64,000 nucleotides of DNA from Psammoneis japonica (lineage: Eukaryota). A program made the position numbers and the translations under genes. Shown in pieces: positions 10,138-37,800 of this stretch. Under the pieces are notes generated by a model, which did no database searches, had not been told where the DNA came from, and saw only the letters and a list, made by a program, of their open reading frames with translations. Location: NCBI GenBank assembly GCA_008632985.1, contig QPGO01000049.1:1-64000 (forward strand), written 5' to 3'. How positions within the stretch are numbered: the first letter of the stretch is position 1; each line of letters begins with the position of its first letter.

Positions 10138-10981
10138 TGTCCTCAAATTCTTTCTACAACTACCAACTGCGGTCAGAGGTTTGCTCAATTTATCAAGAAA
10201 TCAAGTAAGTCGTCGCTGAATGAGACAAAGAACAATCGCATCAGCAGTCTTTTTATGGTGTCAGCATGGGATGCGGGATTCTCATTCGCGTCAACCACAA
10301 AATGGTGTTCGCATGATTAAATTCAGTGACACGATGCTTCTCATCGCATGGTAAACGGTGCCGTCATTTCCGAATTGGCCAACGCGGTTGCAACGTATCC
10401 AACAGAAACCCTTCAAGAGCCCACCGCCGTTGACCTGGACTTGTCCTCTGCTTCTCCTGAAATCTCATGAGCTGGAGAACCACGCTTTCATGTGCTGTGA
10501 AAAGCATCATGAATCATTCACGGTTGTGTTTCACTTGGATTCATGCATCCTCATTGTGCAACAGGCGAGTGTGGATACATGGCAGTCGTAACTGTAATGA
10601 CAATGCTTCATTCACACGCACAATACAACGATGAACGAACGCGATGAGCGATGACAGAGCTTGCACGCGGGCCACGCGAAGCACCACGCACGGCTCCGAA
10701 ACTAAACGGCATGCAGCATGCATGCACACTCTCCATCGTGAGTCCATGCGTCGACCGTACCGCGCGCGCTTCGCACACTCCCGGGGGTCTATGCGAGACG
10801 CAAGATTCTGCTCTCACCACAAAAGAAATTCTGCTCTCACCACAACGTAGAAACGTACCGAGCTCCTTCGTAGAATAAAAGCATTCTTTGCCGAAACGGA
10901 ATCTCGATCGACCTCTCCGATGCCGAGACGTGCGCATGAAACACACTCGAGGTCTCTTGTCGACCATGGCAAGCAAACGCC

Positions 10982-11674
10982 ATGCACAACCGTGTCCATG
11001 CACGGGGATCAAATGCCGAAACTCCATGTGACACTGTCGAGTGTGACGATGTAGATGGTCCCACGAGGGATGAAACACTCGACGAGCTGAGGGAACCGAG
11101 TTGTGGCACGGCGGCGGAGAAGAAGAAGGTCGTCGAGATCTTCATCACAAACAAGGCGGAAGTTGAGAACAGGATTGGCATGGAGAACACCCACGACATT
11201 GAAGCGTTCAGGAAATGCACTCCTTCTACCATTGCTGCACTAAATGAGACTGGTTTTGGAGCGGCACCCACGGCAACGGCATTGCCAGATTTGAGTGATG
11301 CACTTGATCGTGTGCAGAAGCAAGGAGAACTGCAGGGCGCCACTCGTGCCGGGCAGGCGGACCTGATCACGAAGGCTGTCAGCCAGGTGAGGGACACTGT
11401 GTTGTCAGCAAGAAATGCAGCTCATCACACTGCTTTGCATCAAGATCAGGCTGTGGTCATGCCCCTGACGGCCGAAGAGCGCGACAGGAAGTTTCTTGTC
11501 GGCGGACACCTGCCGGACGACCAAGCGCACCGTCAATGCATTCGATGTGGACATTTTTCTGTGGATGAGCCAAACAAAAATCAAAACATTGCACAGAGGA
11601 ACAAGAACAAGCTTGATGAATGGCAAGCTTCTGTCCAGGAGTTTGAAAATTGCAAGAGGAATGGCGCACCATGA
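10982..11674 (+). pseudogene. Degraded ORF inside the TIR element with a CxxCxH motif; function unknown
   Basis: 230-aa ORF with natural charged composition and QCIRCGH motif. It contains no Tyr, consistent with TpA erasure. Confidence 0.45.
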
Positions 11675-11899
11675 GGGACGGCATTTGCACTGTGCCATTG
11701 TGTGTGGATCTTCATTGGGATGGATTCCATGGAAAAAAAACAGATGCTCTAGAATCAACAATGCTGCTGTGTGGTCCGATTGTGTTGGTGCTGGAGCATT
11801 GTCGAATCTAGAGCAGTGTTGAACAATGAACCTAGAGCAGTGTCCAATCCAGAGTTGCGCTGAACAAAGATCCTAGAATGGCATCTAATCCAGAGCAGT

Positions 11900-12175
11900 T
11901 GACAGGATTTGAACAGGACCCAGGTGCGCGTGAAATGTCGCGCGCTGTTCAGTTTACCGTGCACAGTTTTGTGTGCTTTAGTTCTGCGTGTTCGTGCACG
12001 ATGTAGTTTGCTTTCGAGCCACAAGGCTCACAAGAATGACAACAGCAGCCCGATTGTGCCGACTTGCACGTCTTTCGGCTCCTGTGACGGTCTCTGAGCG
12101 GAGACTCATCTGCTGTTTAGACAGCAGCAAGGAGTTGTTGTTTGAATTCTTGCCATTTGCCTTCAATTTCTGTCA
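11900..12175 (+). repeat. 5' LTR
   Basis: Direct repeat of 18725-19000; TG...CA termini. Confidence 0.95.
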
Positions 12176-13110
12176 GATTGACAGTCTTGCTCATTGTCAA
12201 CCCATTGAGCAACCGCCATCGTCGTCGTTGATTTGCCGATGATGCCATTTCAATTCTGCGTGGACCTCCGCATGCATCCTGCACACATCGGCAAGTCCAC
12301 GCGCGTCCAACACCAGGCATCGGCAGGAATTTAACGTCACCGTCAAGTCTCCTCACCGCTGGATGTCTGGATTGATTGTGCTGCCTTTGATTGCTGAAGA
12401 CATGCATCAACGGTCACATCCAAGTCTGTCCTTGATCCTCATCCCTTGACACACCCATTCGTCGGTTAACGGTCAAGAACCCCACACATTCAAGGATCTT
12501 CGTCGCTGAAGACAGATGTGTGTGCATGTCTTCACGGCCAAGAACTTGTGCCCACTCTTCGGACTGCGTTTTTGCCACCACTCTACAAGCACGCCGAGTC
12601 CATTGCACCTGATCTACCCTGGACTGCTGGTGCTCCACAGTTCTGCTGGGTCCATGAGGACGACTGTGAGAGCAAGCAGCCGTGATTGCAGCCTGCGTTG
12701 GGGCGAGGGTGTTTTCCCGCGTTTGTTCGTTCGTCCACAGCGCCTGACGCCTGCGTCAACTGGCCAGCCTGATCGGGAAATCCAACCGATGTAAAATGAG
12801 AACGGTTCGGGGGTCTTGTCCACCTCCAGTCAGCTTGCCTGCAGGGGTTTGCAACCCGCCACTCCGCTCGCAAGCAACCCAAAGCGCCGCTGGCTGCGGG
12901 TTTGGACGTGCCGGCACAACTCTACGGACCGGACAGGAAGTTTAGCACTTGACAACGAACGGGATGGCACAGCCCGGCGACTTCTGATTTTAAGGTAGTT
13001 CAAGATTTCAAGTCAAGTCCATTTCAAGTCAAGTCTGTTCTCACCCAAGTTTCAAGTCTACCTTCGCTTCCCAACAAGAATTGCTTGTCCTGACACCACC
13101 TTTGTCTACC

Positions 13111-16100
13111 ATGGTTCTCACTCGTCAGCAACAAACTGATGGTTTTGAGCACATTGTTGGAACCGTGCTTGCCCAAGGTGCTGGGAGCCCTCTTCGTTTG
13201 GCTTTGATCCAAGATGGCACGGACTCGCATCAAGAACTGTTCACGTTCATGCCGTCCCAAATCGACTCGCTTGAGTGCGACGACGGCACTAATGTGATCC
13301 CTTTGCCCCGCGGTTATAAGAACATGTTAGCAGCTCTAATTAGTCTGTACATTGTCAAAGCACACGAAGGTCTTGACGTTGCCAATGACTCCTCGTTGTT
13401 CACGCATGACGAGTTCCTTGCCTGCCACCTCAGCCCCGACTGCATGTCTTCTGTGTCCGTCGGCAGCTCACCCCTCGCACCTCCGCATGTCACCAACCCG
13501 ACCAAGGCACGCGACCCGGCACGAGACTTCAAGCGAGGCATCAAGCGTGACCCCACCGCTTTCACGGCTCTCAAATCCGACAAGCAGTGGCACACTTGGC
13601 ACACCTCACTTGTGGCACAAGCCTGTGCCCAAGACGTCGAGTGCATTCTAGACTCGTCGTACAAACCGACCAGCACCGAAGACAAACTGCTCTTCGCTGA
13701 ACAGCAAAAGCACATGTTCGCCGTCTTCGAACGCATCCTTCTCACCGACAAGGGCAAGGCTCTCATTTGCGAAAATGTGGGGTCTTCTGATGCCCAGACC
13801 GTCTGCCGCGCCTTGTCTGAGCATGCGCTCGCCTCCACCCGTGCATCTGTCAAGTCCTCCACCTTGCTCACGCACCTCACCACCGCACGTCTTGGTGATG
13901 GTGCTTAGAAAGGTCCGACCCACGGGTTCATCCTTCATTGGCAAGATCAGTTGCGCAAGTGCGAGGCACTCATCCCGGCCAGTGACCACTTCTCTGAAGG
14001 ACAGAGGCATGTCATGCTCGAGAATGCCACACACCCTGTCAAGGAACTCCATGCTGTCAAGAACCAAGCTGATCAGCATCGTGCACAGAGTGGCAAGAGC
14101 CTCACATGCGATCAATGCTGTGGCTTGCTCCTCTCCACGGCGGCTCAATGCGACAGTGCATTTCAACCCAAGACGACGCCTCGAGCTCCCCGACGTGCCA
14201 CACACACACACGACGTCTGCTCCGAGGAACCATCCGACGATGTGTTCTGCGACATTGACAGTGACATTGACGTCCTTCAGGCCAATGCTGCCTGCACCCG
14301 TGGTCCCAGCCTCGCCGGTGACCAATGGAAACGTCTCCCTCCCGACCACCAACGGATTTGGGATTCGCTGCCCCATTCCTCCAAGGTGATCATCCTTGAG
14401 CATTCTCGTCTGCCTCCCCGCAACCCGCGAGGCAGCAACTGCCATGAGTCCGTTACGGCCAACCTTCACGACCAACACCTTGGGAGTGACGGTGATGTCA
14501 ACTTGTCCAACACGACTCCTGCTCACTCTGGTGACCCCGCTCCAAATGTGGACGCCAATTCGGATGATCCCATCCTGGCGCACCTCACCAAGCGCAAGCC
14601 ACTGCCACCCGGTGATCTGCAATGTCTGTTGTCTCCTAACCAAGCCCCCAACGCCAGTCGACCGGGGCCATCCGCCGCTCCCTCTACCCCGCCAGCTCCT
14701 GCCGATGACACAGAACTCAACGGCCGCACTTGCCGCCGTGTCAATGACCACAATGTCATTTGCTCTGCCTCTGCTCATCGCTCCACACGCACCGGTGCTC
14801 CAGTTGATCGTGGGGCCAACGGCGGCATTGCTGGCGACGACATTCGCATCATTGCACGCACCTCTTGCCAAGTCGACGTTCAGGGCATTGACGACCATCA
14901 GTTGGTGGACATCCCCATTGTCACCGCTGGTGCCGTCATTGAGACCCAGCATGGTCCCGTCATCGCCATCCTCCATCAGCACGCATGCACGGGCAAGGGC
15001 AAGACCATTCATTCCTGCGGCCAGCTCGAATGGCACAAACAGGATGTCAACGATCGCTCTGTCAAGGTGCCCAACGGCTTGCAATGCATTGCCACTCCTG
15101 ATGGCCATGTCATCCCCATTGACATCAAGGGCGGCCTGCCTTGTGTTGCCATGCGACCTCACACTGACGCCGAATGGGACACCCTGCCAGATGTCATCCT
15201 CACCGGTGATGACACATGGGATCCTTCCATCCTAGATCACTCTGTCACTGACGACGACCAGTGGCACGACGCGATCTCTGACCCACAGGACGATCCCACT
15301 GCCAACCTGTTCGACGAATGCGGCAACCACCGTCATCGTGTCGTTGTCAATGAGACCATCATGTCCGCTTCCTTGTCTGCCGATCATGCGTCCGCCCTCG
15401 ATGATCACCTCATTCCGAACAACGACGTGTTCTACGAGTGTCATCTACACGCGATTGACCCCAAGGACGATGACGTTCCGCCCCCGGAGCGCACTCTGCA
15501 GCCCAAGGACCCCCCCTTCGAGTCTCTTCGGCCTTGCTTTGGCTTCCTGCCTGCCGACACGGTCCGTCGCACTTTTGACTGCACCACGCAGTGCGCCCGC
15601 ATGCCCGCCGGTGCACACCTTGGGAAGGCCTGCAAATCACCCAACCCCGCCCTTAATGTGCACCGCCGCAACGAGCCTGTCGCCACTGACACCGTTCATG
15701 CCGACACCCCGGCCGTCGACTCTGGTTGCACCAGCGCCCAACTGTTTGTTGGCACCGAGTCTACCGTCACTGATGTCTGCGGCACCAAGACGGACAAAGA
15801 GTTTGTCAACACACTTGAGGATCAGATCCGTGAGCGTGGTGCCCCATCCAAACTCATTGGCGACCGTGCTCAAGTTGAGATCAGCAACAAGGTGCTCGGG
15901 ATCCTACGAGCCCTCTTCATCTCCAGCTGGCAAAGTGAGCCTCACCAGCAACACCAAAACTTTGCCAAGCATCGATGCCAGACCGTGAAGCGCATGGCGA
16001 ACACTGTCATGGATCATTTCGGTTCGCCTGCCCACACATGGCTGCTGGCGCTCATGTGCGTGTGCTTCATGCTCAACCACACAGCGTCCCCACGTCTCCA

Positions 16101-18777
16101 CTGGCGCACGCCCCTCGAGACTCTCACTGGCTCCACTCCGGACATCAGCCCATTGCTTCGCTTTCACTGGTGGGAACCCATGTGCTTCCACTTCGATGAC
16201 TCCGATTGGCCACCCGAATCCCGTGAGTTGCGTGGACGCTTTGTTGGCATTGCTGAGCACGTCGGCCACCAGATGGCCTTCAAGATTCTCTCTGACGAGA
16301 CTCAGAAGATCCTCTGCCGGTCCAACGTATGATCCGCCACCACCGATCCTGCCATTCGAAACCTGCGTCTTGATCCCACTGATGGGGAGCCACCTGAACC
16401 CATCATCAAATCTCGCCATGACGACAACCCCATCAACTCTCCTGATGGGGAGATCAGGACACCCAAGATGCCAGTTTTTGATCCGCAAGACATCATCGGA
16501 CGCACCTTCCTCATGCAGCCACAAGAGGACGGACAACGCCACAGAGCTCGCATCGTCAAGGCCATCGAAGACCACGAATGGAAAGTGAACGGCAATCCCG
16601 AGCTCACTGGGTTCGTCTGCTCTGTCAACAACGACGAATGCGAGGAAGTCCTTGCCCACAACGACATCATGAATCACATTGAGCAAGAAGACGAAGACAC
16701 TGCTGTTTGGAAATTTCGACGCATCGTGTCACACGAAGGACCTCTGAAGCCTCATGACCCAACCTGGAAAGGCTCAAGCTACAACATCATGCTTGAATGG
16801 GAAAGTGGGGAGATCACGTCCGAGCCTCTTGCCATCATCGCCAAGGACAACCCCGTCACCTGCGCCATCCATGCACGAGAGAACGGACTTCTCGACACTG
16901 ATGGCTGGAAGCGGTTCCGCACCATCGCGAGGCGCCAAAGAAGCTGTTTCGCATGGCCAACCAAGCCAAGCTTCGCTCTTCCGCACTGCACCTCGCTGCA
17001 AGTGTGGGTGCGAAGTTCCCCGGAACTGCAAACACGCCATGTCACTAGACGAACGCAACGGCAACCGCAAATGGGGAGACGCAACTAATCTCGAGATGGA
17101 CCAACTCGAGGAATACGAAGTCTTCCATGACTGCGGGCCCTTCGAGTCTTCCACTCCTCCTGCGGGACACAAGAAGATCCGAGTGCACCCAGTGCACGAC
17201 GTGAAACACGACGGTCGCCACAAGGCACGACTCGCAGCCGATGGGCACCTCACGGACGTGCCCGTCAACAGTGTCCACTCCAGAGCAGTCTCCCTCCGTG
17301 GCCTTCGGCTGATGATTTTCCTGGCCGAACTCAACGAGTTGGAGACATGGGCCACCGACATTGGCAATGCCTGCCTTGAAGCCACCACCAAGGAGAAGCT
17401 CTACATTGTAGCCGGACCCGAATTTGGCAAACTCGAAGGACACATCCTTGTCATCCACAAGGCCCTGCATGGACTGCGCAGCTCCGGTCTCCGCTGGCAC
17501 GAGCGCTTCGCCGACTGCCTGCGAGCTGAAGGCTTCTTCCCCTGCCGCGCCGAACCCGACATTTGGATGCGCAGGAACGGCGACCACTGTGAATGCATTG
17601 CCGTTTATGTGGATGACCTCGCCATTGCTCTGAAGGACCCTCAATCTTTCGTCGACACTCTCACGGAAAAGCACAAGTTCAAGCTCAAGGGTGCGGGACC
17701 CATTGAGTTCCATCTGGGTTGCGACTTTTCCCGGGATCCCGACAGCACCTTGTGCCTGTCTCCACGCAAGTGCATCGAGCGCATGGTCGACAGCTGCACC
17801 CGACTGTTTGGGGAGAAACCCACCACCAATGCCCTGTCACCTCTGGAGAAGGGTGACCACCCCGAACTGGACACTTCCGAACTGCTGGACCCGATGGCAT
17901 TCACAAGTTCCAGTCTCTTGTTGGTTCACTCCAATGGGCAGTGTCCCTTGGTCGAATTGACATTGCCACGGCCGTCATGTCACTCTCTAGCTTCCGAGCT
18001 GCACCCCGTCAAGGCCACTTGGATCGTGCCAAACGCGTCTGTGGGTGCCTCTCCAAGATGCGACACGGCGCTCTCCGCGTTCGCACGGAAGAGCCCGACC
18101 ACTCGGATCTCCCTGCTCCGGCCTGTGAATGGATGCATTCCGTGTACGGCGAAGCAGAAGAGATGATCCCGAAGGATGCTCCACCGCCCCTTGGCAAGTT
18201 CGTCACTGCCGCCCACTACGTCCATGCAAACTTGCACCATTGCATGCTCACCGGACGCTCTGTCATGGGAATGCTCCACTTCCTCAACAAATTCCCGGCT
18301 GGTTGGTTCTCTAAGAAGCAAGCCACCATAGAGACTGTGACCTGCGGGTCTGAATTTGTTGCCGCAAGGACTTGTGTCGAGCAGATCATCGACCTGCGCA
18401 TCACCCTGCGCCACCTTGGCGTCCCGATCCGTGGTGTCAGTTGCATGTTCGGTGACAACAAGTCGGTTGTAGACAGTGCCACCATCCCGCACTCCAAGTT
18501 ACACAAGCGACACACCGCACTGTCGTTCCACCTTGTGCGTGAGGCAATTGCCTCTGGTTGCCTTGAGTTCCACTTCATCGAAGGCTCCCGCAACCCTGCT
18601 GACATTCTCAGCAAGCATTGGGGTCACTCCCAAATCTGGGACCTTCTCCGACCCCTCATGTTCTGGAACTTCATTCCATCCGAAGTCGAATCTGTTTCTG
18701 TGGCTCCTCAAGCAAACTGGGGAGTGACAGGATTTGAACAGGATTCAGGTGCGCGCGAAATGTCGCGCGCTGTTTAG
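13111..18777 (+). pseudogene. gag-pol polyprotein pseudogene (gag, aspartic protease, integrase, reverse transcriptase, RNase H)
   Basis: RDFKRGIKRD (gag), VDRGANGG (protease), VATDT...DRAQVE...SEP (integrase), KARLAADG, ATDIGNA, YVDD (RT), FGDNKSVV and NPADILSKHW (RNase H). Stops at ~13906 and ~16330; frameshifts at ~16940 and ~17890. Confidence 0.92.
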
Positions 18778-19000
18778 TTTGCCGTGCACAGTTTTGTGTG
18801 CTTTAGTTCCGCGCGTTCGCGCGCAATGCAGTTTGCTTTCGAGCCACAAGGCTCACAAGAATGATGACAGCAGCCCGATTGTGCCGACTTGCACGTCTTT
18901 CGGCTCCTGTGACGGTCTCTGAGCGGAGACTCATCTGCTGTTTAGACAGCAGCAAGGAGTCATTGTTTGAATTCTTGCCATTTGCCTTCAATTTCTGTCA
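18725..19000 (+). repeat. 3' LTR
   Basis: Direct repeat of 11900-12175, followed by TSD GCAGT. Confidence 0.95.
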
Positions 19001-20300
19001 GCAGTGTTGAACAAACAACCTGGAGCAATGCCGGTGTGGAATCTAGAGTGGCGTCAAACAAAGAAACTAAAGCACTGAGTGGCATGGAATCATCCAATCT
19101 AAAACCAGTTGCAAGTGAGTCACTCCCTCCGAGTCACTCAGTTTTCGACGAGGCGCGACAGATGGTTTCTAATGCAGTGCGGTTGACAGCATTCGACAGA
19201 CAGCATTCGACATGACAGTGCAGACAGCATTCGATGAAATGCGACAGCTGGTGCCCGACATGAAGCTGCAGATGGCATCAGATGCAGTGCTGTGGCTGGC
19301 ATCCAACACGATGCTGTGGACGGCATCCGACGGGATGCACAGCATCCGACGCGACACTGCATTCGACGCGACACGCTAGATGGCATTTGATTTGCTTCTT
19401 CTTCCATGCTCGGAATCTTTGAAGCAATGGTGAGGCATGTCTTGGACAGATCTACTCGAGGAACTGGAGGAACTGTTGTCTTCAGGTGGCAGTTCCTTCC
19501 TGTTGCCCTGTTTCTCGGAGCGCTCTGCTCTTGCTTTCTTCACGTCGACATCATTGTCCTCTGACAATGCTGCTGCAGCTGATGGTGTTCGCTTTCGACA
19601 CGGTCGCTCACTCATGGCAAATGTGTCCTCTGACCAAGCTGTTCAAAGCAACAACAAAAACAAAAAGCACCATCAGTTCCAAGCACGACCACAACAACGA
19701 AAGCAGTGTCGCAAAAACGCCTTTTTGACACGATGACAACACTCCCCATGACAATGCAACAATCTCAGGCGCTCTTCTCAATGCAATGAACAAACAATCT
19801 GAGCCATGAAAGACAACAGATGAAGCCGCATCTGCAAAGTGTAAACGATGCGGCCAACGGCATGGGATCAAAAACCACAACGCAGCGTTCAGGCGCTCTT
19901 CTCAATGCAAAGTGCAACAAAAAATGAACCTTTGCGACCTCGTCGAGAGGCGTTTGCACAAAAACCTTGATGGTGAGATTCCATTTCGGTAAAGAATGCA
20001 CTTTTTCTACGAAGGAGCTCGGTGCGTTTCTACGTTGTGGTGAGAGCAGAATTTCTTTTGTGGTGAGAGCAGAATCTTGCATGAGAGACCTTCGGGTGCG
20101 TGCGAGCGCGCGCGCGAAGAACGGTCGACGCATAGACTCCTCACGATGGAGAGTGGAAACGGCAGAGCCGCAACGACGCGACGCGCGACGCTCCGAAACC
20201 ACCGCCCAAATAAAAAATCAGAATCACACACCACACTCTACACTCTCTCTCCTTGCTACTCGACAAGTGACTGAACAGGCAGCACAGGCTTCGTGCATAC

Positions 20301-23840: not shown

Positions 23841-26800
23841 CTGATGACACCTTTGTGAAAGACAGAGAGCTGCAGACAAATCTGTGCAATGAGTGGTGAT
23901 GGTGCAGAGGAAGAACGCGGTCTTGCTTGCCAAGAACAGGGGAGTGTGCGGTGTTGTGGCCCCATGTGCACTCGGCGGCAGCGCTGATGATGACTTTGTG
24001 AATGACAGAGAGCTGCAGACAAATTGGGACAGCAAACAGTGATGGTGAAGAGGAAGAAGAGCACGTGTTCATGCATGACTGGCAAACAAAACCTCCTCAC
24101 TCCACATGGCAGGGCAGTGCACAAAGCTCAATTTCCCATCTCTTGGCAGTCAGGGCAACAATGCACTTTTTCTTCATGCAGTGGCTTGCTTTGGGAGTGG
24201 GGCACTGTGCCACATGTCACTTAGATGAGTCAGTTGAAGCACACTGGGCTGTCAAAATCTGTTTGTAAAAAGCCCACTGGAGTCTTCAGAGCCCCCTTCA
24301 GTCAATGCCGCAGCTTCACTCAGACAAGTTGATGTCTTTGGAAAATGAGGCAGGCTTTGGCAGTGCTTTGTCTCTCTGCAGTGGCCAGACTTGCACTGGC
24401 TGGTTTGAGCCCAGGCAAACATTTGTGTGCAGCTCTTGATGCTGCCAAAGGACTTGGCAGGTTGACCTTTTTTGATTTCTTTGTTGCCAAGAAGCAAGAA
24501 GTGTTTCCACAGTGACAAAGAGTTGAGCAGCATGCACAGCACAAACTTTTTGAATTTTGAAGCAGCTGGCACTTTCACTCACCCCATGCACATGTCTGTG
24601 AACCCTTCCTCAGAAACTCAAGACCAACTTTTGCAGATGACATGATGTTGCCATCCTTGGCATCACCCAAGTGGTTGGTGATCACATGACAATGTGTCCA
24701 AAGCTGGCGTGAGGTCAGATTGAAAAGAAAGTGGCACACACCACCACAGCATCGCGAGAGGACTCAGCATGATTGGTGGATGCAAGGAAGTGGAGGACCT
24801 CCCCAAAACTTGCCAAGGGCAGCAACAGCCCAAGACATTTTTCCCAGCAAAGTCAAATGGGGGGGGGGGGGCACACAAGAGCCAACAGAGCTGGCTGCTT
24901 TTGAGAGCTGGCAGTGCACTCCTCCCATGCCCATCATCCCATGGCACCATGGCTCAAAAATGGAAGAAAGTCTCATTTGACCACTCTTTCTCTCATCCCA
25001 GTTGTTGCTGCCTTGCATGCAGGACCTTCACCACTGCTGACAAAAGTCTGACAGTGCCAAGAACTCCCTGTGTTCTCACCTGCCATCATGCTTTTGAAAG
25101 GCAGTGAGGCACTCAGCCTTCAGCCTCTCCTTCTGGATTGAAAGTCTTGACAATGAATCCAGCATGATGTTGGGGATCCATGTGTTGTCACACAATGTGT
25201 TGTTGACAAGCTCAGTGAAAATTTCCACCCACAGCAGGAGCTGATGCAGGCATTGATGATGCAAAAAAGTCTTGCAGAGGCAACAAAATGTGGGCAACCT
25301 GGGGTGTGGGGTGTGGGGCCCTGCAGCTCTGAAAGGAATTGCTCGCTTGTGTGCATCTCCCACAACAATTCATCAGAGAGGTGAAAAAGGCAGTGCAAAT
25401 CACAGGTTGTCATCCCCCCACGCTGAGCCAGTGTGCGCATGGTGGCTTCATTCATTGGGTGGACCCCTCACACATTCAATTGCATGGTTGCTCATTGGTG
25501 TCTCACCCATTTTATTTGTTTGCACATGTCCACATTTGTCCTTCATCTCATTGTTGCCCTCTGACCCAAATGTGTCATTTTTCACATTCTGACTTTAGCT
25601 CAACAATTGACGTCGTGCCTGACGACCGGCACATGTTTGTGGATTTCCCAGCAACTGCATTGGATGTTTTCTTGCTTCATTGCCATTCAGCAACATTTCT
25701 GTCTCCCGATCATAATTTGTGCATTCAATGTGTTCTTGTTGTTTGTTGGCATGTTGCATCACAGTGTGGCAGCAAGAACAGCACTGCAACCACAAACACA
25801 CATGCTGCATTGAGTGAACCGGCTGATGTCAAAAACACTTTGGCTGTCCTGTGATGTTTCTGTGGCAATTTCACCATGTCAACTTTTGCTCACTGTGTTT
25901 TTTCCAAAGTTGACAGTGCAGCCTAATTGCATCACCTTCACCGCCCCATCCCACCCAAGACAAGTCTGTCAAGCCCATTGACTCCACTGATGATTGTTCT
26001 GAAGATGGTGTTTGCAGCATTCTTGATTCTCCTTTGTGCAATGACCCAAGTGTGAGCGCTGCTGTTGGCACACCATTGTCATCTGCAGAGAAAGCATGTG
26101 CCCACCTTGGGTGCTCCATTGGGTGCTCTCTTGCCTGTGCAGATGTTGAAGGTAAAAAGGAAGCATCATCCAACATCTCCTTCAGCCTGCAGTTTCACTG
26201 ATGGCAGCACTGAAGAATCCTCTGACAACAATGAAGATTCCATTGATTCTGCAGATTCTGGCAGCACGGAATTGCTGCTGGAGGTCACCCCTCTTGCAAA
26301 TGATGAGTCAGTGGAAGATTTGTTTGATGATGGCAGTTGCACTGACAATGATGATGATGATGACAATGACAAAACCAAAACTGACTCTGTGACTGCCAGA
26401 AAAACTGGCTCAGTGAAAAAATGTGGTGCACCATTGCTGACTCTTCTTCTGTTGTCCAGCTGCATGAAGAGTTGCTGATGTCCTTTTTCCCTTTTTTAAG
26501 TCATTGAGAATGATGACAATGCAATTGTGCTCACAAGCGGCAATGGCCAATGTTGCATTGCCAAACATTGATTCAAGAGGACAAAGGAAACACAACGGGC
26601 AAGGAGGGCCTTCCTTGCCAGTCTCAAGTGGAGGCCCACTCCTGACTTTCCTGTGCTGCCACATTTGTGGCACAATCCCAAGAATGGATTGTGCCACTTT
26701 TTTGAGTGCAAGTTGTCGCTTTCAATGACATCATGGGTCAATCTCTTTGATGCAAATGCAGCTTCCATTGCATTTGAAGCTGTGGTTGGACATGCCAGTT

Positions 26801-29800
26801 GGAAAGGAAGAATGGGAAGGCCACTGGGCGGTTTGTTCTGCAGTGTCAGAAAATTGCAGAGGCCTTCAACAGCCTGGGGTGCTGTGGCAAGAACCTGATT
26901 GCCACGGTGGATTTCATGTGCCAGATTGTCAAGTCCAAAAGTCTCTGCAGCTGCTCAGCATTCCTGCAGAAGAGCACCTTCATTGCCACAGCCAATTTCA
27001 TGGCACAGACTCAGAGCATTGCCCTGCATCCACATTGGAGACTCTTTTCCTCCCTCATGTCAAGTTCAAAAAGGCAGCACATGCTCCTGGTGCAAATTGG
27101 TCTTTTCTCAGTGCTCAAAACCAAAGATGTTTGTGCTTGCAGCAAACAATCTCCTGCAAGCAGTCAATGCCGACACAAAAGTTAAATCTGGCAATGTGCT
27201 GAAGAACATGCTGAAGACAGGCCCAGGTGCAATCAAGGACCTTGTCTCTGACAAGGCTTGTGATAAAAAAAACAGCCCTTCATTCTGATCAAGTGGAAGA
27301 GCAGATGTGCAACACATTTTTGAAGAACTGCAAGAACCCCAACTGCCAGAAAATGAAGAATTTGGCAATTGTTCACTTGAGGGTTCATGACTTGATGTGC
27401 AAGGGCCTCAAGCCAAAGCAGAAAGAAAATTTGACCTCTTTCATGTGGATTGGTCTGCCTGGGATGGGCCAGAAGCAGAGTGGTTCTGGATCTGCCAAAG
27501 GCCAGCATTTTTCTGACTGTGCCAGTGCCTGATTGCAGTTCTGTTTTCAAAATGTGTTGCATTGTTGTTGTTTTTCGAAATTGGGATCTCTTGCTCCCTC
27601 CAAAAGAAAGAAGGGCATGGAACCCCCCGGCACTCTCAGGATCTCTCCAGCTGTCCCAATGCCAAGTTCTCCCCCCCTCCCCCATGTGTCAACTTGTGCA
27701 TGACCTGGATGACAATGACAATGATGTGTCTATTGCTGACCACAATTCCAGCCCCGGACTTGAAGTCCTTTTTTCATGACAACTCCAAAGTCTGTTTCTT
27801 TGGACCACTGGGAAAGTCATTTCCCACCACAGCACAAATGTCCCATCTCCAGCTTGCAAGAAATTGCCAAGGTCACTCCTCATGTTCATGTGTTTTGCAA
27901 TGGGGTGGACAAAGATGGTAATGTCAACAGGGGTCCAAATGACCATGAGCTCCTTCTGTGTCACTTCCCATTTAATTTCCACTTTCTTTCAAACCTCTGC
28001 ATGTAAAAACATTCCTTTGAGTCAGCCAGGCCTCTCCCCAATCCAATGTGACATTTTTGTGAGTTGAGCGCAGTCCCTCCCCACACAACAAAGATTTCAG
28101 CTGGTCAAACCATGCTCTGTTCTGATGACCAGCTGTTTGCAAAACATTTTCCTGGGCTCAAAGTCCATTTTGGCACATTGGCACATTTTGTTTTGGAGCA
28201 TGGCAACAGCAATGAGAAACATGATGAACAATGTCCTGGAGGGCCGGTGCACAATGATTGTTGAATCAACTTTGGTTGTTGTGGACAGAGCTGGGTGCAT
28301 TGTTGGAGCTGATGGTGAACCAGAGCTGTCTCCTTTGTGTGGCTTTGACAAATTTGATGTGGGCAATGACAAAGAATTCTTTCTCAAAGCAAAGGCCATG
28401 TGGGCTGATGCCTTTGATTGCATGCAGTGCTGCCAAGATGAGTTGTGCCTCAAACCTTTTGATCTGCCACCTTTCCACAACAACAAGGAGTGGACTAAAA
28501 AGTTTGGCCAACAAGCATGGGAGGAACTTGGTGCTGAATGTGCTGGCAACAAGAATTGCATGATCCGGCTAAAAAACATGAGGTGAGGTGGCAGGACATG
28601 TGAACACAAGAACAAGCAGGGCTGCTGCTGCAACACTGGATGTCTTGCTTGTTTTGGAAGGACAAGGTTGGAGACATTTGGTCATTGAAAATGTTGTTGA
28701 ATGGCTGTGGCAAGGCAGAAAATTGCTGCATTGACAAATTCAGAATGAGAGACCTTGAGGCAAGGGTTGGTGTTTTTGCTCATGCCATCAACCGTGATTG
28801 CAGCCGGTTCATCAGGAAACACTCTGGTCTAATTCATCTCTGCAAGGGTGATCTTTCCTGTTGCCACCCAGAAAAGCTGCGCATGGGAGTCAGTCTCCTT
28901 GCAATTGAAGGGCAACACAATGCAGGACACCATGGTGTTCCCCACTTCAGTCATGAAAGAATCTTTGGCTTTCTCTGGCCAAGACCCCCATGTGCAACAT
29001 TTGTGAGGACTTGAGTGTTTGTGGCTGTGTGCAGCTGGCAATCATGGCAAGCTGTCAGACTGGCTTTAACTGGTTCTTCTGCATCTGCACCAAGCACTCA
29101 GACAAGTTGCACAACTCTCCAGAAACTGCCGCTCTTGTTTGTTTCCATGACATGCCATCAAACTTTTTGGAACAGCTGCTGGGGACATTGGAATGACCCC
29201 TCATTGTATGAACCCAAGCAGACTGCAATGATGTCCATGATGATGGTTGTTCTGTGGGGAATGGCAAGAAACAACATCGCACTGCCAATGATGAATCCAG
29301 CAATGTTTCTCCGGGAAAGAGGAGACAAATCAAAACACCAAACAAAAGGAGGATTGCCAACAGGTGGCATCAAGTGAAGAACCAGAAAACTTGGTTGTGA
29401 ACCAAGCAATGGAATGACATCAGATGTCATTGCCCTGCTGGAGTGGACTGATGCAAGAACAGGCACTCAAAACTTCCATCATTTCCCAGTTGAAAAAGAG
29501 ATTCACAAAATGTGTGCTGGTTGGTCTCATGAAACCAACATCAACAAATTCTGGGTGATGCTCATCACACAAATGCTCATTGGATGCAGCACAATCATTT
29601 TGGGACACAAAGATCTGTGGGACTTGGTTCATCCTGTGGTGAACCTTGGCGCAGCAATGCAACTTGCTCACCTGACAAATGATGAAAGGGCAGAAGCATT
29701 GGAGATTCTTGCACAAAATTTTGGCATCACCCATCACAGAGACAATTGCAAGGAGCAAGTGCATCACCTGTGAAAGCCACAGAAAAAGAGTTGAAGATTT

Positions 29801-32329
29801 GATGAAGAAGCATTTTGTCAAGAACCAACATCTCTTTTCCCCAGCGGGCCTGGACGGCATTCCTGGCATCAAACAACATGGTGCACACTGCTGGGAGAAG
29901 ATGCTGACTCTGTTAGAAGCACCTGCTGATGGACCCAGGGTGGACAAAGAAATGGATCTTGCCACCAATTCAACACATGACAGAGACAAAACCAATGGCA
30001 CCAATGTTGAGGCCAGCGGGATTGGGGACAATCCCATGGATGATTGCAGCACCAATGTTGAGGCAACTTGCATTGGGGACACTGATGTGGATGCCCATGG
30101 TGCCAATGTTGAGGCAAGCAGGAATGCTGACACTCCTGCAGATGATTTCAGTGCTGATGTTGAGGCCAGTGGGATTGGGGGCAATCTTGCAGATGATTTC
30201 ATTTTGGATGGTGCAGCAACGCAGGAAGGAGGAGAGCACCACACAATCCAATGTGAGCAATGATGACACACAGTTTGCTGATCCTGCCTCCAATGACAAT
30301 GCTGTTGACATTTCTGCCTGGGAGGTGCAAAACCAAGGAGAGTTGGTTTTGGCAAGTGAAGCAATTGTTCAACCACCATCCAGGACTGAGGTCAAGGCAC
30401 TTTTCTTGTGCATGACACAGACCAAAGACATCAACACAGTGTCACACCACAATGTGCTTGACAACACCAATGGACATTTGGTTCACTGCAATGCAAAGAT
30501 GTGTGTTCCTTTGCATCCAGGCTGCCAGCATGTCAGCAATTGTTGTGCAGCTGCAACCACTCTGGAATCAAAGATTGTAAATTTTGCATGGTGTCTCTCA
30601 GCAACAGTCATGAAGAATGACACCCAAACTGCAACATGTGCAGCCCAAACTTCCGAGATGAAATGCTGAGCAAGTTTGGCAGCAATTTTGCAGAAATTGA
30701 CATGGACTTTTTCTGGCTACAAAAGGGTTGGTTGAGTGACAAGTTCAGCAAAATGTTCTTCAGCAAGATGACACTGGATCTGGCAGTGGCAATGAAAGAA
30801 GGTGGAGCCTTCTTTGTGTTAACATTGGGACGTTTCTCGGTCATGTGGAACACAAAAACAGAACACAGGAAGTGCTCAAGTCAAGGTGCTGTTCCCACAT
30901 CTGGAAACAAAAGTTTTGCTTCATGAGCCATGCTGTCATGGTCACTTGGATGAACATTTGTGCCACAAGAAACTGGGGCTGAGCTGCTGACGACAGATGG
31001 AAAAGTGCCTCACTGGTGTCTTGCACCAGGAAATCAGGGAGTTTGCTCCAGAAAGCCCAAAAATGAAGCATGGACTAGATTGAGGAATGAGCCCCAGCAG
31101 GTTGATGTTTGTCAATGGATTTGTTTTTTTAGGAAGAGGCAAGACAAGCAACAACCATCATTGGTGTCTTTCTCAGCTGGACACAAAAATGAGCAATCCA
31201 ACCATTTTATGAGATTCTTGGATGCTGGTCCCAACAGGAGCAGACAAGACACATGATGGTGTGATGAACAGTCATTCAAATTTGTCCAACCACCTTGCAT
31301 GTCAAGATCAACCTTTGTTGTGCGTCACTTTTTTTTGCCCAATTGTTTCCTGAACTCACTCCAAAATGAAGTGCCTTTTTGTTCACCATGTCAGACAATG
31401 TGGATTTCTCTCTGAGGTTTCCCAATCTGCAACAGGATTGCACTCTTGCCCAGCCAATGGAGGTGAGGCAAAAACCACAGGGTGATGAGTGGTGTGCTCA
31501 TCTTGCTGCAAAGAATATCATTTGTCACCTCGGCAATTTTGGAACAACTCAAGATAAAATTGATGCTCTTTTGCCCCACGAGGGAAACTGTGCCAATTGT
31601 TGTCATGATGTTGGGCAGAACCAACAATGTGCAGTTCCTGCGTTGGACTTGCAGACTGACTGGGAAACTGCATTTGGGGAGATGTTCCCAGTGCACAAGC
31701 CATCACAATTTGTCACTGTTGTTTCATCAATGCCCACTTTTTCAAGAAAGTGGAAGGATGGCACACAGAGCTTGACATCAAAAACACTTCTTTTTGAAGA
31801 GAGGATGGACCCATGCACTTTCAAAGCCAAGGCCCCTTCAACATTGTTGACGTGCCAATGGCAGACAGGAAGTTGCAACAAAAGAATGGATTGCTGACAA
31901 AGAGATGCAATCTGCACATGACTTGCAGAGAGGCTCCCATTTCTGGTGCACCAGTTGTTGTCTGGCAACTTTTGTGGGGCTTGGGTGCATCCAGAGATGC
32001 ACAAGCAGCTGTGTGTTGTTGACAACTTGCCACCAATTGTGCCCAAGGAATCCACAATTTCATTGGGAAAAAAGGTTGTGGGAGCACCCATGTCAATTCT
32101 GATGGATGGAAATCATTTGCAATTTGTCACTGACTGTCATTAAAAGGAAAACACAATGCATTCAGGCACGGTTTGTGTTCATTGGAGCAAGAAGTGAGAT
32201 GCAAAGAAACCTCTGCTCCTTGATGCAACATCATCATGCAGCTGCATGTCTGACCAACAGTTCTTCACATGTTGTGCAGGAGCTGTCTGGTCTGCACCCA
32301 AAAGCTGCACTTGTGTGCACCATTGGACT

Positions 32330-34800
32330 TTCCTGCCTCTTGTGCCATCATGTCTCTTGTCCACTTGACAAAGACCTCTGCCCACTTGATTCTGGGTTGA
32401 ACTGCAATGACTGTGTGCTCTTTCCAAGAGTTGGGTGACAAAATCTGAGGGAGGAACTGGGTCTGCATTGTGTTTTGTCTGGAAACACAGGAGGCCACTC
32501 TTTGTGCAGGAGATGGGAATGTGTTGCATCGACGGATTGCTGCTGCTCTGAAATTCTTTTGTCGGCAATGTGTGAACAGCCTGGTGTTGCCATGGGTTGA
32601 CTCACACACTGTTGCCAGCTTGCAATTGACAGAATGAACAATGGCCTTCACATCACCAGTTTTGTCCTTGTAAATCCCAATGACTCTCACAGGGCATGTG
32701 TCATTGGAGCTGTTGTCCATGTTCAAGTCAACAGCAGCAGCTCAATCACGCCAGGATCTCTCCTTGGAGTGGTGCTGTGGGTGGGCATGGGGTGCAAAAA
32801 CCAATGTGGGTTGTTGAGGTCTTCCATGATGTTGGCAGATTTGGGTGTGGGCAAATCAACCCTTTTCTTTGTGATGGTCTTTCTCAACCTGCCATTGACA
32901 CACTTCTCAACATCAGTCTTGACCTCTTTGTCAATTGGGCCTTCGCACCTGTCCTGTGGGATGGGACACACAAGGGATTTGATGCATTTGTGGGAGGGGC
33001 ATGAGACAGATTGCTTGCCATTGACAGCCTTCAAAATTGTCCATGATTCAACAAATGGCTGGTCCATCTGGAGATTGTCAAAGTTGTCTTGCTTGCCATT
33101 GACAGCTTTCAAAATCTCCCATGATTCAATGAATCGCTGGTCCATCTGGAGATTGTCAAAGTTGTCTTGCAACAAAAACCCAAAGCCGAGCAGCTTGAGG
33201 TTCTTGATGACAAATTGGGTCATCAAAGGTTTTCTGTCAAATGTGTCACTGGCATTGTGGTCTGCAGCACAACACAAATCTTTCCTGAAAGGAAAGGTGC
33301 TGGGAGGCAATGCTGGGTTGTTTTTTGAACAGCTTCCTTGGGAGCACCAGCAGCCGACATGTTGGATGGTCTTTTCCTTTTCTGTCCATGCCGGTTAGAA
33401 GCCACTTGACTGGACTGCTTTTTCCCAAAAGCAGTGTTGTCCAATTGGTTGCCATTGGCTGCAGCACTCTGCTTTTCCTTTTGTGACAGCCAGACAGATG
33501 AGGCAGATGGAAAGGCAGCGCATTTCTTTGTTTGTTGTTGGCAAGCCTTTTGCACAATCTCACAAGTGCCTCTGAATTGCATTGCCACAGTGAGGCAAAA
33601 CAAGGTTCCCATCTTTTCTGTGTGGGTCATGAAGGTCATTCTGGTGAAACCAAAGATCAAACAGTCTTTTGGACAGTTCCCACATGTGGTCAACCTGGTG
33701 GACCCCACTGCTGCCACCAACTCCTTTTCAAACTTTTCTTTTTTCCTTTGGCATCAAACCACAACACATGACAGTGGCTGCATTCTCTCCACCTCTGGCC
33801 TCCCAAGAGCGCAGGTGATTGTCAGCAATGGCAGCGAACACACCCCACAGGTTGCCCCCAAAGTCAACACCATCAACCACACATTTGTCAAAGAGTGCAT
33901 TGTGTGCAGTCTGGCAAGCAGGGCTGCGGCTGGCTTCTGCTGCCATTTCAGGAAATCTTCCATTCATCCATTGGCTGTGATTCTGTCGGAGGAGGCACCA
34001 TGACAAACAAGGGTCATTTTGTTCAGGCACGACACCATCTTTGCATTCATTGGAGTGCAAGACAGTCTGTTTCCTTTTGTGGGGAGGAACATGCTAGAAG
34101 TGCTCATTGACAAACACATGCACAGTTGGCGGACCCAACCCATGCCACCTCCATTGGTTGCTTTAAAACCACATGTGCAGTCCTGTGATTTCTGGTCTCC
34201 AAAAATTGGAGCCTGCATGAGAGTGTGCACCAGACAATGTCACCACCCAAATTTACCATCATCCTGGGTGGGTGCTTCTAAAGATGCTTCAAATCCTCCA
34301 ATGAAAAAGAAAGCATGTCATGGTGCACTTGCATGTTGGTGGATGAACCACATGGTGCTGAGTCATCCTTGAGGGAGTTGCCATTTTTCTTGGTGCAACC
34401 AGACAAACCACCTTTGTCTGTGTTTGGCATGAAACCCAAATGATGCCAGGAGAAAGAGTGTTTGCAAGCTTTTCCTCTTCATGATGAGGACACAGAACAG
34501 CCAGGGTTCAAGCAGACATCATTGGCAGGTGTCAGTTCCCATTTGGTCTGCATGCAAGCCTGTTGGAAGAAGGAGGTCTTTTCTGGATCAAAATCTTTGG
34601 GAAGAGCATTGCTTGTGCTGTCAGAGCACCATTTGTTGCCAACTGTTCCTCTGAGGTCACAGTCATCCAAGGGAACAAACTTGCAGAACTGTTCCTGCAT
34701 TGATTGGTTGACATTGAGATTGTGATGATCTTCAAAAAGAGAGTGGGCAAGCAAGTCCCTCAACATGTCCTGCATTCAGAAACGGGTGAGTTGGCACCCA
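32330..34800 (-). pseudogene. Fossil Plavaka-like (CACTA-related) transposase
   Basis: Minus-strand fragments LRDLL..LFED..NLNVN, GLHADQMGTDTCQ*CLLEPWLF, DFGGNLWGVFAA, FHLPHL...KLFKKQPS and KWAEVF resemble motifs I recall from diatom and fungal Plavaka-like transposases. Many stops and frameshifts. Confidence 0.55.
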
Positions 34801-37800
34801 CAAATGATGCGTGCATCTGGCTTTGGCATGTGCGCCTTCTTCCAGAGGTTTTTTAGAGCAACCTTTTGCACCAAAGAGCCTTGGATGCATCAAACTTCTT
34901 TTTTTACAGAGATGTTGCAGCAAAGTGAGCAGTGAATCATAAAATCCTCCAGTGGCACAGGAATTGTCACACAGTGTGATCAGCTGAAGAGAAGCTTCCT
35001 CATCCAACATGAAGCTGCAACCAAGCAGAAGGGATGACTGTTCCTTGCATTGGGGGTTCTGCCAGCACAACATGCTCTTCATTGATGCCACAATCATTGG
35101 CAGAGTTGGTGCCAGGAAACATCTTGAAAAGAGACAGCTCGCCCTTGTCATCTCCATCAAGATGAGATCCATTGGTGCAGTCCCATGTGGAGTCATTGTC
35201 TTGTTCATTGGAAGCACCATTCTCAAAATCCAAATCAGTGGAAGTGAACTCCACATTGCATGCTGCTGTTGCACCAGGAGATGACAGGGAGGAAACAGTG
35301 GAAGAGCTGGTGGGGGAACTAATTTTGGAGCTGTCAACAGTGTTTCCGGATGTGCCAGAAGAGTTTGAGCAAGATTGGCAGGAGGACATCAACAACAAGA
35401 ACTCCTCATCCCATTGTTGACAAATGAGAAAAACAGTGGCTTGGGACAATGTGCCAAAATCACCAGCCGCAATGTTGAAACAACCAATTTGGTTGGGCTT
35501 GCAATGGCAACAGTGGGAACAAACCATGCACAAGGATCAAACTGCAGGGGGGGGGGTGCCAACTGAGATTGACGCAAACAAAGGGAAAACACTTGGAAGC
35601 AAGCAAACTGATTGATTTGAAATTAGATTGTTGAGCAGGCATGGGAGCTGATTGAGAATGCACATGCTTTGCAGCTGTGCAGGCACAAATGTCGGAAAAC
35701 TGGAAATGGAATTTGAAAATTTGGACATTCAAACATCCAGTCACAGGCAATTGCATTGTTTTTGAAACTTGGGTGAGTGAATTTGAGTTGCACAAGTGAA
35801 CATCTGAGAATGAACAAAATCAAGGAGAATCTAATTTGTGGATTAGAATGTTTGCAAATGCAGGGAAATCTAGATTGCAGTGGCAAACAGCCGGGCAGAG
35901 CAATGTGCGCATGACCTGAAGCTGAGCGGAGCACTTGGAAAACAAAGCACACAATGAATGTTGTGAAGACATGGCAACCACAGTGCAGAGGCAGATCAGT
36001 CCAGTTGAGTGAATGGACAATGATGAAAAGGTGGGCAGAGACACAGTCAAGGTGAGAGAGCATGTCAAAGAAAAGGTTTTTCTCAGGCTTCACATTTGTG
36101 TTTGATGTGAGGCATTCAGAGGAAACCGGCATGCTGTGCAGAGACTGCACTTGGAAATGTGGACCAACGCTGATGAACAGAGTGCCAACAGAGCTGCCAG
36201 AGGTGAAACAGAAGACATGCCTGCACCCCCTGTGGATGAAAATGAAACAAAACAGGTCATGCCAGGATTGGCCAGTGATTGATCAATCCAATGCATGTCA
36301 GGCCCAGCAAGACAAGCTTCGCTGCAAATGCTGTCACCGAGGATTGTTGCAAATGAGGGGAGAACAAACTGATGTTGGGATTGTGTTGTTGCTGATGATG
36401 CAGTGCTTTGTGCATGCTGCAACAAGAACAATTGCATCTTGCCTTTGCCGAAACAATTCCAGGATTGATTGTTGAGTCCAACATTGCAGATGGTGTTCAA
36501 CAACTGCTTGTTGCAACCAGTCATGGGAGATGTTCATCAGAAGAAGAGCCTCTCCAACAACACAAGGTTGAGCACATTGTGTGCCAAGGCATTTGCTCAC
36601 ATGCTCCTGAAGAACAATGTCATTGCATGGTGTGCTGAGCACAAGAGCAACAACAAGGACAGTCCTTGTTTGATGTCAGACCGTGATGTGGAGGTCAACA
36701 ACCAAGGAAACCCCACCAGAAGGGAAGACTTGTGTGAGACTGTGATGCCGGATGTCACCGTTGCTGAGCCAGAGAATGCAAATGGATCAAGCTCATTCAC
36801 CATTTTGGAAAAAGACCCTGAAGAGCCCACAGAGCAAGGTGCTGTCTCAAGAAAATGGCAAACAAGTTCAAGGAGGCACAGGAAAAGTCCCTCCTTGAGA
36901 GCCACAACAAATGCATCAAGAAGGTGAGAATGGAACAAACAACACAAGAGCAATTGTCCATTTTGACAGAGGTCACAACCAAGCCAGAGAGCAACAAGAA
37001 CCTGCCAGACAAGGAGGGCAGCACCAAGGAGAGAACGTGCATGAAACACCTGAAGCACTTCACAGCAGGAAACTCCAGGAATGGAGCAGAAGAAGGTGCA
37101 CCCAGGAGATGATGCAAGACACCCAGAAAGTCCAAAGGATGGTCACCAAGGGCAAACAAGATCTTCAAGCAACTGGCAAGGGAAATCAAACAAGACATTG
37201 CAGGCAAACAACTGGGCCAATGGGAGCATTTGCACAGGCTGAGCACAACAAAAAAGAAGAGGAAGAGAACAATGAGTCAGGGGATGAGGGCAACCACATG
37301 GTGAACTGTGCCAAGACATGTGAGCTAGAGTTGATGCCAGTTTGGCAGATGACACATAAAAAGCAGCACTCATGATGATGTTGCAAATGACACTGCAGAG
37401 CAAATCTAAATTGAACAACTGGGTTTCTTGGCACCAATTGGCAAGCAAACAGGAAGGATGCATCACAAATTGGCCAGTTGCAAAACCAGTCACCCAATCC
37501 ACTGTCAGTCAGTTGTTTACATTCATCAAATGGAATGTCATGCTTGAGTCAACTTTTTGCATTGCAACAAACTTGTTGGTTTGCACACTCTTGACTCAAA
37601 ACCACGGACATTTGTTGGAGGTGTGGGACATTCATTTGTTTTCAAATCACACCCATTTGTCACAAGTGGGTGGGATTTGTGACAAATCTGACTCATTTGG
37701 CAATGAACAGATCAATGTTTTGTCATTGCTTGAGCACCAGGAAAGTTTTTTCTCCATTTGCCAAAAGCAAGCCTGCCACTGCTTTCTCAAACTTCACTGC

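Follow-up and report, generated by a model that had tools for sequence, protein, structure and literature searches.

The two long terminal repeats (LTRs) of a Ty1/copia retrotransposon in the diatom Psammoneis japonica differ at 15 positions, and these differences were probably laid down after insertion, in silenced DNA, by two processes: a fast mutator that changes TpA to TpG or CpA, likely a DNA adenine deaminase, and a slower decay of presumed 5-methyl-CpG (5mCpG). The element occupies positions 11900-19000 of the window, which is the whole stretch of DNA analyzed here and comprises the first 64,000 nt of contig C50 in a 91.4-Mb assembly. At 7.1 kb, it shows the features of the Ty1/copia group, namely TG...CA LTRs, a target site duplication (TSD), a polypurine tract, and an RVT_2 reverse transcriptase (RT). 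Its TSD is perfectly matched, which makes it unlikely that the element is a recombinant of two insertions.

The first-pass annotation of this DNA had counted about 15 differences between the 276-bp LTRs, all transitions, with about 13 in pyrimidine-purine (YpR) dinucleotides. Realignment gave exactly 15 differences, every one a transition, with zero indels and 13 of 15 in YpR; all of the dinucleotide swaps quoted as examples were found in the alignment. This concentration in YpR gives P = 0.006 when all 144 YpR bases serve as background and P = 8e-6 when the background is restricted to the 82 bases of TA- or CG-class columns. Sorted according to the 112 family LTRs described below, 7 differences are TA class, 6 fall in CG columns, and 2 lie outside YpR. 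The TA-class differences occupy five sites: at three, TA survives in one of the LTRs, and the other two are CA/TG swaps that each involve two bases. Both LTRs retain TA at sites where their partner has lost it, as had been noted, on the evidence of three sites (11955 and 12004 in the 5′ LTR; 18775 in the 3′ LTR). Among the six differences between CG and TG or CA, CG was lost in the 5′ LTR at five and in the 3′ LTR at one. The emphasis originally placed on TA therefore holds for about half of the differences (7/15), while ordinary CpG decay, mentioned at the time as a caveat, accounts for 6/15. The two non-YpR differences, at 11919 and 11920, are TT versus CC and lie directly 5′ of a TA-class site. 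A triple T>C run before a TA-class site was seen in 2 of the 112 LTRs (window 11917-11924 and the 5′ LTR of stretch L035), which are otherwise 14 differences apart; this run may stem from bystander editing or from conversion over a short tract.

The direction of change was examined across the element's family, for which the first 19 LTR bases have 573 exact matches in the genome. Eighty stretches were fetched, yielding 61 candidate 5′/3′ LTR pairs, window copy included. The 56 pairs with a TSD of at most one mismatch (112 LTRs) were kept, and five candidates were dropped before any counts were made. The YpR columns of these LTRs fall into three classes: 22 CG columns, in which CG fills 2139 of 2464 cells; 19 columns of TA, CA, or TG with almost no CG; and 31 columns of fixed CA or TG that are free of TA. 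Polarization by the family consensus, the check that had been proposed, was run, and the commonest state proved to be already CA or TG at three of the five TA-class difference sites. The TA/CA/TG counts there are 44/11/57 (site 56), 11/68/33 (site 141), and 13/38/61 (site 237), with no CG at any of the three. Assigning polarity from the commonest family letter was therefore rejected, since it mis-polarizes TA sites; polarity must rest on the three-state pattern of TA, CA, and TG and on outside homologues. The three classes recur along 36 full-length copies: 260 TA-class columns contain 2390 TA, 2900 CA, 3888 TG, and 19 CG; 526 CG columns contain 16502 CG, 1141 TG, 950 CA, and 0 TA; and 911 columns of fixed CA or TG contain 20 TA among 32,307 YpR cells.

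Because these classes were defined from the same data, outside RT homologues were used as a control. Of the 120 outside homologues fetched, at least 70% of those that aligned carry Tyr at each of 14 RT columns, and we read the codons of 17 copies at these positions. Tyr accounts for 49 of the 238 codons, Cys for 108, His for 64, and Phe for 17, with all Phe in one column, whereas conserved RT His was kept in 152 of 153 cases and Cys in 51 of 51, none of them having turned Tyr. In the window copy, 2 of 13 conserved Tyr codons remain Tyr, and one Tyr column reads CAC in 36/36 copies. Judged from these alignments, TA is the ancestral state, and the change runs opposite to that of repeat-induced point mutation (RIP). 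A family consensus of CG, CA, or TG, which the first-pass annotation had named as the finding that would overturn its claim, applies at the six CG sites, which show ordinary CpG decay; it is a poor test, given the commonest states at three of the five TA-class sites. Five of the 120 outside homologues (P0093, P0061, P0101, P0007, and P0096) carry Cys or His at 3 to 6 of 9 to 11 Tyr columns, a hint that the same process may operate in other organisms, probably diatoms. The family also includes a 3.3- to 4.0-kb nonautonomous subfamily (L033, L038, L040, L042, L055, L056, L064, and others), whose LTR and roughly 1.2 kb of leader (about 81%) match those of the family, whereas gag-pol is not shared.

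A single LTR pair is by itself insufficient to show that the mutations arose in chromosomal DNA after insertion, as had been claimed from the window copy. Among the first 29 pairs, the two LTRs of an element had the same state in 274 of 493 comparisons at TA sites, against 276.7±8.1 after shuffling. Both outcomes, TG and CA, were present in 36/36 copies (TG share, 0.49 to 0.63), and palindromic contexts in the window's family gave 887 CA versus 903 TG. Editing of RNA or of minus-strand cDNA would be one-sided, so the two-strand outcome speaks against editing before integration. In a second copia family, two copies with 0 LTR differences have an internal TA observed/expected ratio (o/e) of 0.5 to 0.9, indicating that reverse transcription does not strip TA. 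Furthermore, one element of a gypsy family has GTACC as its left TSD and GTGCC as its right; since a TSD is made by integration itself, this TA/TG difference places the change after insertion. Copies that have lost more TA have also lost more CG (rho, 0.89) and carry more private changes at other columns (rho, 0.68). The same TSD test had little power in the window's family, in which 53 exact TSDs contain 0 TA in 212 steps. Among the 61 candidates, three TSDs have one mismatch (two CG/TG and one A/T) and four candidates have no TSD; stretch L041, whose TSD has a CA/TG swap, also has an altered LTR end and is uncertain. The absence of TA from these TSDs, along with mostly TA-erased flanks, shows that the window's family sits mainly in already eroded DNA. 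Collectively, a post-insertion origin of the LTR differences, in double-stranded chromosomal DNA, is well supported by these sequence comparisons. The earlier argument against RNA editing or RT error before integration was borne out by the changes on both strands, the fresh intact copies, and the TSD case.

The rate of change at TA is high. Over the 56 pairs, transitions per base were 0.296 at TA, 0.088 at CG, and 0.0059 elsewhere, an excess at TA over other sites of at least 50-fold, and saturating. Young copies change about 10 times as fast at TA as at CG, and the 13 least eroded copies have lost 49 to 65% of TA versus 3 to 7% of CG. Overall LTR divergence is 939/15,440 (6.1%), compared to 77/10,857 (0.71%) outside TA and CG columns. 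The prediction that LTR dating would overestimate the age of the element is thereby confirmed, with naive divergence inflated about 8.6-fold; saturation of the TA sites makes this bias nonlinear. When the change is written as A>G, its hazard depends on the base 3′ of the A (C, 1.36; T, 1.19; G, 0.74; A, 0.69), with the same order in two further families, and the base 5′ of the T matters little. The tRNA loop edited by TadA recalls such a 5′-TAY target. In AA, CA, and GA contexts, A>G ran at 3.1, 3.3, and 3.0 per 1000, and the change is confined to TpA. The motif of polymerase eta is WA, and its signature was rejected, as AA is not raised over CA or GA. Same-strand runs are slightly above chance (2274 versus 2216±24); this excess is too slight for strong processivity, which was also rejected.

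Within elements, TA is lost in kilobase-scale patches, and the stretch that resists differs from family to family. Among the 16 copies that form a younger clade of the window's family, TA was kept solely in the 5′ LTR at 110 sites and solely in the 3′ LTR at 9; by element, 13 lean toward the 5′ LTR versus 1 toward the 3′ LTR. The leader of young copies is largely spared up to about position 12600 (its first ~420 bases), and beyond this point 23 to 31% of TA is kept. Where the 5′ LTR is best preserved and the flanks are long (12 elements), the 800 bases upstream have a TA o/e of 0.01 to 0.05, so the spared stretch is not explained by an adjoining gene. Spreading by read-through into the 3′ flank was not seen, as upstream and downstream TA o/e were alike (P = 0.14, 28 elements). 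Four more families were sampled (40 stretches), with first picks chosen by best RT or RNase H score and hence biased toward intact pol; 22 further copies of two families, picked by TA-free LTR motifs, were then added. In the second copia family, the hot zone is the leader and gag and the resistant zone lies near the 3′ end, while the gypsy family has varied patches. A "protected pol island" in the gypsy family was discarded, since the TA kept there fell from 87 to 98% in 6 picked copies to 31 to 48% in 11 new copies. Along stretch L141, which has matched TSDs, the TA kept follows a 2-kb gradient (0, 12, 5, 8, 15, 33, 64, 76, and 89%). In the second copia family, 5 of 21 copies have unrelated TSDs (L146, L180, L187, L188, and L189), and the TSDs of L189 are those found at the left of L185 and at the right of L140; these five copies are ectopic recombinants or assembly chimeras. 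Recombination, conversion, or assembly joins may lie behind some patches.

The footprint of TA loss coincides with that of CpG decay. CG loss was 196/2015 (9.7%) in TA-erased bins versus 26/1296 (2.0%) in TA-kept bins of the second copia family, and 147/1977 (7.4%) versus 15/636 (2.4%) in the gypsy family. These totals differ by 3 to 5 times, and within copies CG loss was greater in the TA-erased bins in 21 of the 22 copies having both bin types. In the window's family, the spared leader lost 10 of 395 CG versus 404 of 7217.

In the mechanism that we propose, a fresh insertion would arrive with normal TA, and a silencing mark, either CG methylation by a DNMT5-like gene or linked histone marks, would accumulate over parts of it. 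An enzyme attracted to silenced chromatin would then deaminate the A of 5′-TAY on either strand to inosine, which replication would fix as G. As TpA is palindromic, a single event on one strand or the other would be enough to abolish the site, leaving TG or CA and almost never CG. Tyr codons would be lost, and the oldest blocks would end nearly free of TA; the resistant stretch of the window's family, its 5′ LTR and leader, would likely be an open promoter. The genome contains a DNMT5-like locus with Tudor, C5-methyltransferase, and SNF2 domains. Its deaminase genes include a TadA-like gene, an ADAT2-like gene, two ADAT1/ADAR-domain genes, a deaminase-dioxygenase fusion, and metabolic types. 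The ADAT1/ADAR-domain genes lie on L135 and L137, and that on L137, for which the matches listed include no other Pfam domain, has relatives in both centric and pennate diatoms. The fusion (L115:313-1785, minus strand) joins a CDA-fold deaminase to a 2OG-Fe(II) dioxygenase; it is a candidate, although it probably serves nucleobase metabolism. Several C5 DNA methyltransferase copies on L125 to L127 (contigs C301 and C297) sit in TA-erased DNA (TA o/e, 0.07 to 0.10), and related copies elsewhere have normal TA; those on L125 to L127 are probably carried by a mobile element. More tentatively, the system may be a diatom defense that resembles RIP with reversed chemistry: a double-stranded DNA adenine editor guided by a CG-methylating silencing mark, starting from family-specific zones, spreading over kilobases, and stripping Tyr codons, with families surviving by means of a short protected stretch and by copying before attack.

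Several observations weigh against this interpretation or narrow it. Among the second 28 pairs, the two LTRs had more derived states in common than after shuffling (184 versus 153.9±6.9), and the excess recurs within two of three subfamilies (P = 0.0095, 0.046, and 0.18). Partly eroded parents are thus still copied, so that the LTR differences are post-insertion while the total TA loss of an element is not wholly so; to that extent, the claim that the mutations arose in the chromosome after insertion stands for the differences, and part of the TA loss was inherited. Palindromic contexts lean toward CA in two other families (433 versus 356 and 651 versus 569), and the TSD evidence for TA amounts to one clear case. 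Sparing of the 5′ LTR was rejected as a general rule, because the second copia family runs the opposite way (5′ versus 3′ LTR, 18 versus 98) and the gypsy family is balanced (77 versus 75); among 20 shorter or nonstandard-length elements of the window's family, the split is 8 versus 8 elements. CpG methylation is presumed here, its basis in this genome being the DNMT5-like locus. The search of the genome's deaminase genes yielded no stand-out candidate: ADAT2-like and TadA-like genes are present, though tRNA-editing genes of that sort are widespread, and the one ADAR-like gene that was checked is common to centric and pennate diatoms. Amphioxus ADAT2, a precedent for a natural DNA adenine deaminase, is reported to prefer GAA rather than TA (PMC10354150). 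Finally, sequence cannot separate chemistry on the A from chemistry on the T.

For this last reason, the palindrome's two bases being inseparable by sequence, the main rival remains a change on the T side, in which an oxidized TpA thymine (5-hydroxymethyluracil or 5-formyluracil) pairs with G, or a Y-family polymerase puts G opposite T while repairing methylated DNA, at the same place and time. We consider this unlikely but to be taken seriously. TA>CA on one strand is TA>TG on the other, so all of the counts fit it equally; the overlap with CpG decay would suit repair triggered by T:G mismatches; and T>C directly 5′ of TA sites makes up 11 of the 77 LTR differences in other columns. The polymerase version is at odds with the flat A>G rate in AA, unlike that of polymerase eta, and the near absence of same-strand excess argues against long repair patches. 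The disparity between TA and CG loss in the 13 least eroded copies implies that TA change does not arise as a side effect of each CG event.

That the patches are gene conversion, ectopic recombination, or assembly chimeras joining fresh and eroded copies, the mutator itself being real, we find rather improbable. The unrelated TSDs in the second copia family, the abrupt borders of some gypsy patches, and the pair L180 and L187, which have common flanks yet differ over about 2 kb, all point that way, and conversion from a fresh copy would reset CG as well, mimicking co-location. Against it, several TSD-matched copies have smooth 2-kb gradients, L141 among them, and 13 of 14 informative TSD-matched young copies of the window's family spare the same end. 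We give less credence still to a mark on the TpA adenine, N6-methyladenine or another, that is deaminated or misread in silenced DNA in parallel to 5mC decay. TpA is palindromic like CpG, so a heritable mark is possible, and both decays share domains; a TA rate some 10 times that of CG in young copies is, however, high for spontaneous chemistry.

It is very improbable that the changes predate integration and stem from RT error or from the editing of RNA or single-stranded cDNA. Some derived states are indeed common to both LTRs of an element, but such states are shared because parent copies were already mutated; moreover, both strands are affected in every full-length copy, changes found in the 3′ LTR only run both ways, fresh copies with identical LTRs have normal TA, the gypsy TSD differs at TA, and flanks of the elements are TA-poor too, as is the terminal inverted repeat (TIR) element around the window copy. 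Finally, the possibility that all differences are C-to-T decay, through CpG decay or fungal-type RIP acting on ancestral CG, CA, or TG, holds for 6/15 and could cite the commonest states at sites 56, 141, and 237, but it is refuted for TA-class sites, as those three sites lack CG in all 112 LTRs while true CG columns largely retain it and conserved His and Cys codons never turn Tyr.

In the window, TA o/e is 0.01 to 0.23 in mobile or repeat segments, falling to 0.01 to 0.06 in old blocks, versus 0.38 to 0.62 in four genes or long open reading frames (ORFs). The broken gag-pol of the element has a TA o/e of 0.13 and a CG o/e of 0.84. The copia element is nested in a probable nonautonomous DNA transposon (10800-20080) with inverted ends of 106 nt and 94% identity; a single ORF fragment without a Pfam match was found in it, and TA is eroded there too. 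An older related copia relic at 22900-24200 (minus strand), about 81 to 86% identical to the 3′ end and LTR, has 1 TA in 1.3 kb and a CG o/e of 0.34 and represents a later stage of the same erosion. Long degenerate inverted duplications (71 to 84%) lie in TA-erased blocks (36200-37700 with 46770-48260; 26940-27770 with 52545-53370). At 57822-60221, a 799-amino-acid ORF containing an array of 12-nt repeats (58602-58853) has normal TA and no Pfam match.

Features of the copia element and its surroundings in the window
Feature	Positions	Strand	Remarks
Left terminal inverted repeat, probable host DNA transposon	10800..10905	+	TA o/e 0.18 in 10800-11899
Left TSD (GCAGT)	11895..11899	+	Identical 5-bp copy at right end
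5′ LTR, 276 bp	11900..12175	+	TA kept at 4/19 TA-class sites; CG kept at 16/22 CG sites
Leader	12176..13109	+	TA o/e 0.22 in window copy
Broken Ty1/copia gag-pol	13110..18724	+	In-frame stops, frameshifts; RVT_2 match, E=3.9e-23
Polypurine tract preceding 3′ LTR	18714..18724	+	
3′ LTR, 276 bp	18725..19000	+	TA kept at 3/19 TA-class sites; CG kept at 20/22 CG sites
Right TSD (GCAGT)	19001..19005	+	Same as left TSD
Right terminal inverted repeat, same host element	19975..20080	-	TA o/e 0.14 in 19001-20080
Old repeat block, end state of erosion	24201..38000		TA o/e 0.05, CG o/e 0.11

Among known systems, the closest is that of the chlorarachniophyte Bigelowiella natans, in which TpA-restricted hypermutation of integrated nucleocytoplasmic large DNA virus and virophage DNA has been described (Mettrop et al., bioRxiv 10.64898/2026.01.13.699255). 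That preprint reports de novo, TpA-only chromosomal mutation in two viral inserts at about 6e-7 per site per generation, a rate raised about 1000-fold and active in some lines only, along with TpA-poor reverse transcriptase and DDE genes, and proposes ADAT2 as the enzyme (10.64898/2026.01.13.699255). The two cases have in common TpA>TpG/CpA change on both strands of chromosomal DNA, confinement to foreign or mobile DNA with genes spared, and long-term TpA depletion. Three features of B. natans that can be tested from sequence are seen in the diatom: confinement to TpA, both outcomes in chromosomal DNA, and limitation to mobile DNA. The B. natans case concerns two viral regions, the larger of them single copy, with modest depletion (rho, 0.45), a link to transposable elements through Pfam enrichment, and a directly measured mutation rate, whereas the diatom rates given here are LTR divergences. 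In the diatom, the targets are LTR retrotransposons and a TIR element, TAY is preferred, the patches are smaller than an element, and CpG decay is raised within them. Our literature search found no diatom report of TpA hypermutation, within a coverage that mostly excluded subscription papers.

The process resembles RIP of ascomycete fungi in that dinucleotide-specific transitions on both strands wreck repeats after insertion. RIP is a C>T change that creates TpA, and it is premeiotic, RID dependent, and triggered by homology. In the diatom, by contrast, TA is removed while CA and TG are left alone, C>T creation of TpA was not seen, and identical LTR twins are affected very unequally. APOBEC and ADAR editing acts on one strand before integration and is common to both LTRs; APOBEC3 and ADAR share with the present case the deamination-type, context-specific transitions in mobile DNA, but the changes here are on both strands and follow insertion. 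Decay of 5mCG, with CG>TG/CA on both strands in transposons, is seen here and explains 6/15 of the differences; it cannot account for T>C or A>G transitions at TpA. In Phaeodactylum, DNMT5 is described as methylating CG in CoDi copia elements (10.1101/2021.06.11.447926), and the window element is like the diatom CoDi Ty1/copia elements in its copia RT, TG/CA ends, TSD, and diatom host (PMC2806351). The amphioxus report gives TCG as well as GAA as the preferred contexts of ADAT2/3 DNA deamination (PMC10354150).

New here are a test of timing across the family, the gypsy TSD that differs at TA, a measure of the dating bias, protected zones that vary by family, and the footprint shared with CpG decay. 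In genomes of this kind, LTR-based ages are inflated about 8.6-fold, with saturation, and plain consensus letters mis-polarize TA sites. LTR twins, TSDs, and fresh copies act as built-in controls that fix the timing and strand behavior of the change, and its footprint is tied to CpG decay. A natural adenine deaminase of double-stranded DNA, if that is what acts here, would be of interest to the base-editing field. These findings extend a TpA process that had been reported once, for viral inserts in one alga, to the transposons of a diatom, in which it has rewritten large blocks of DNA.

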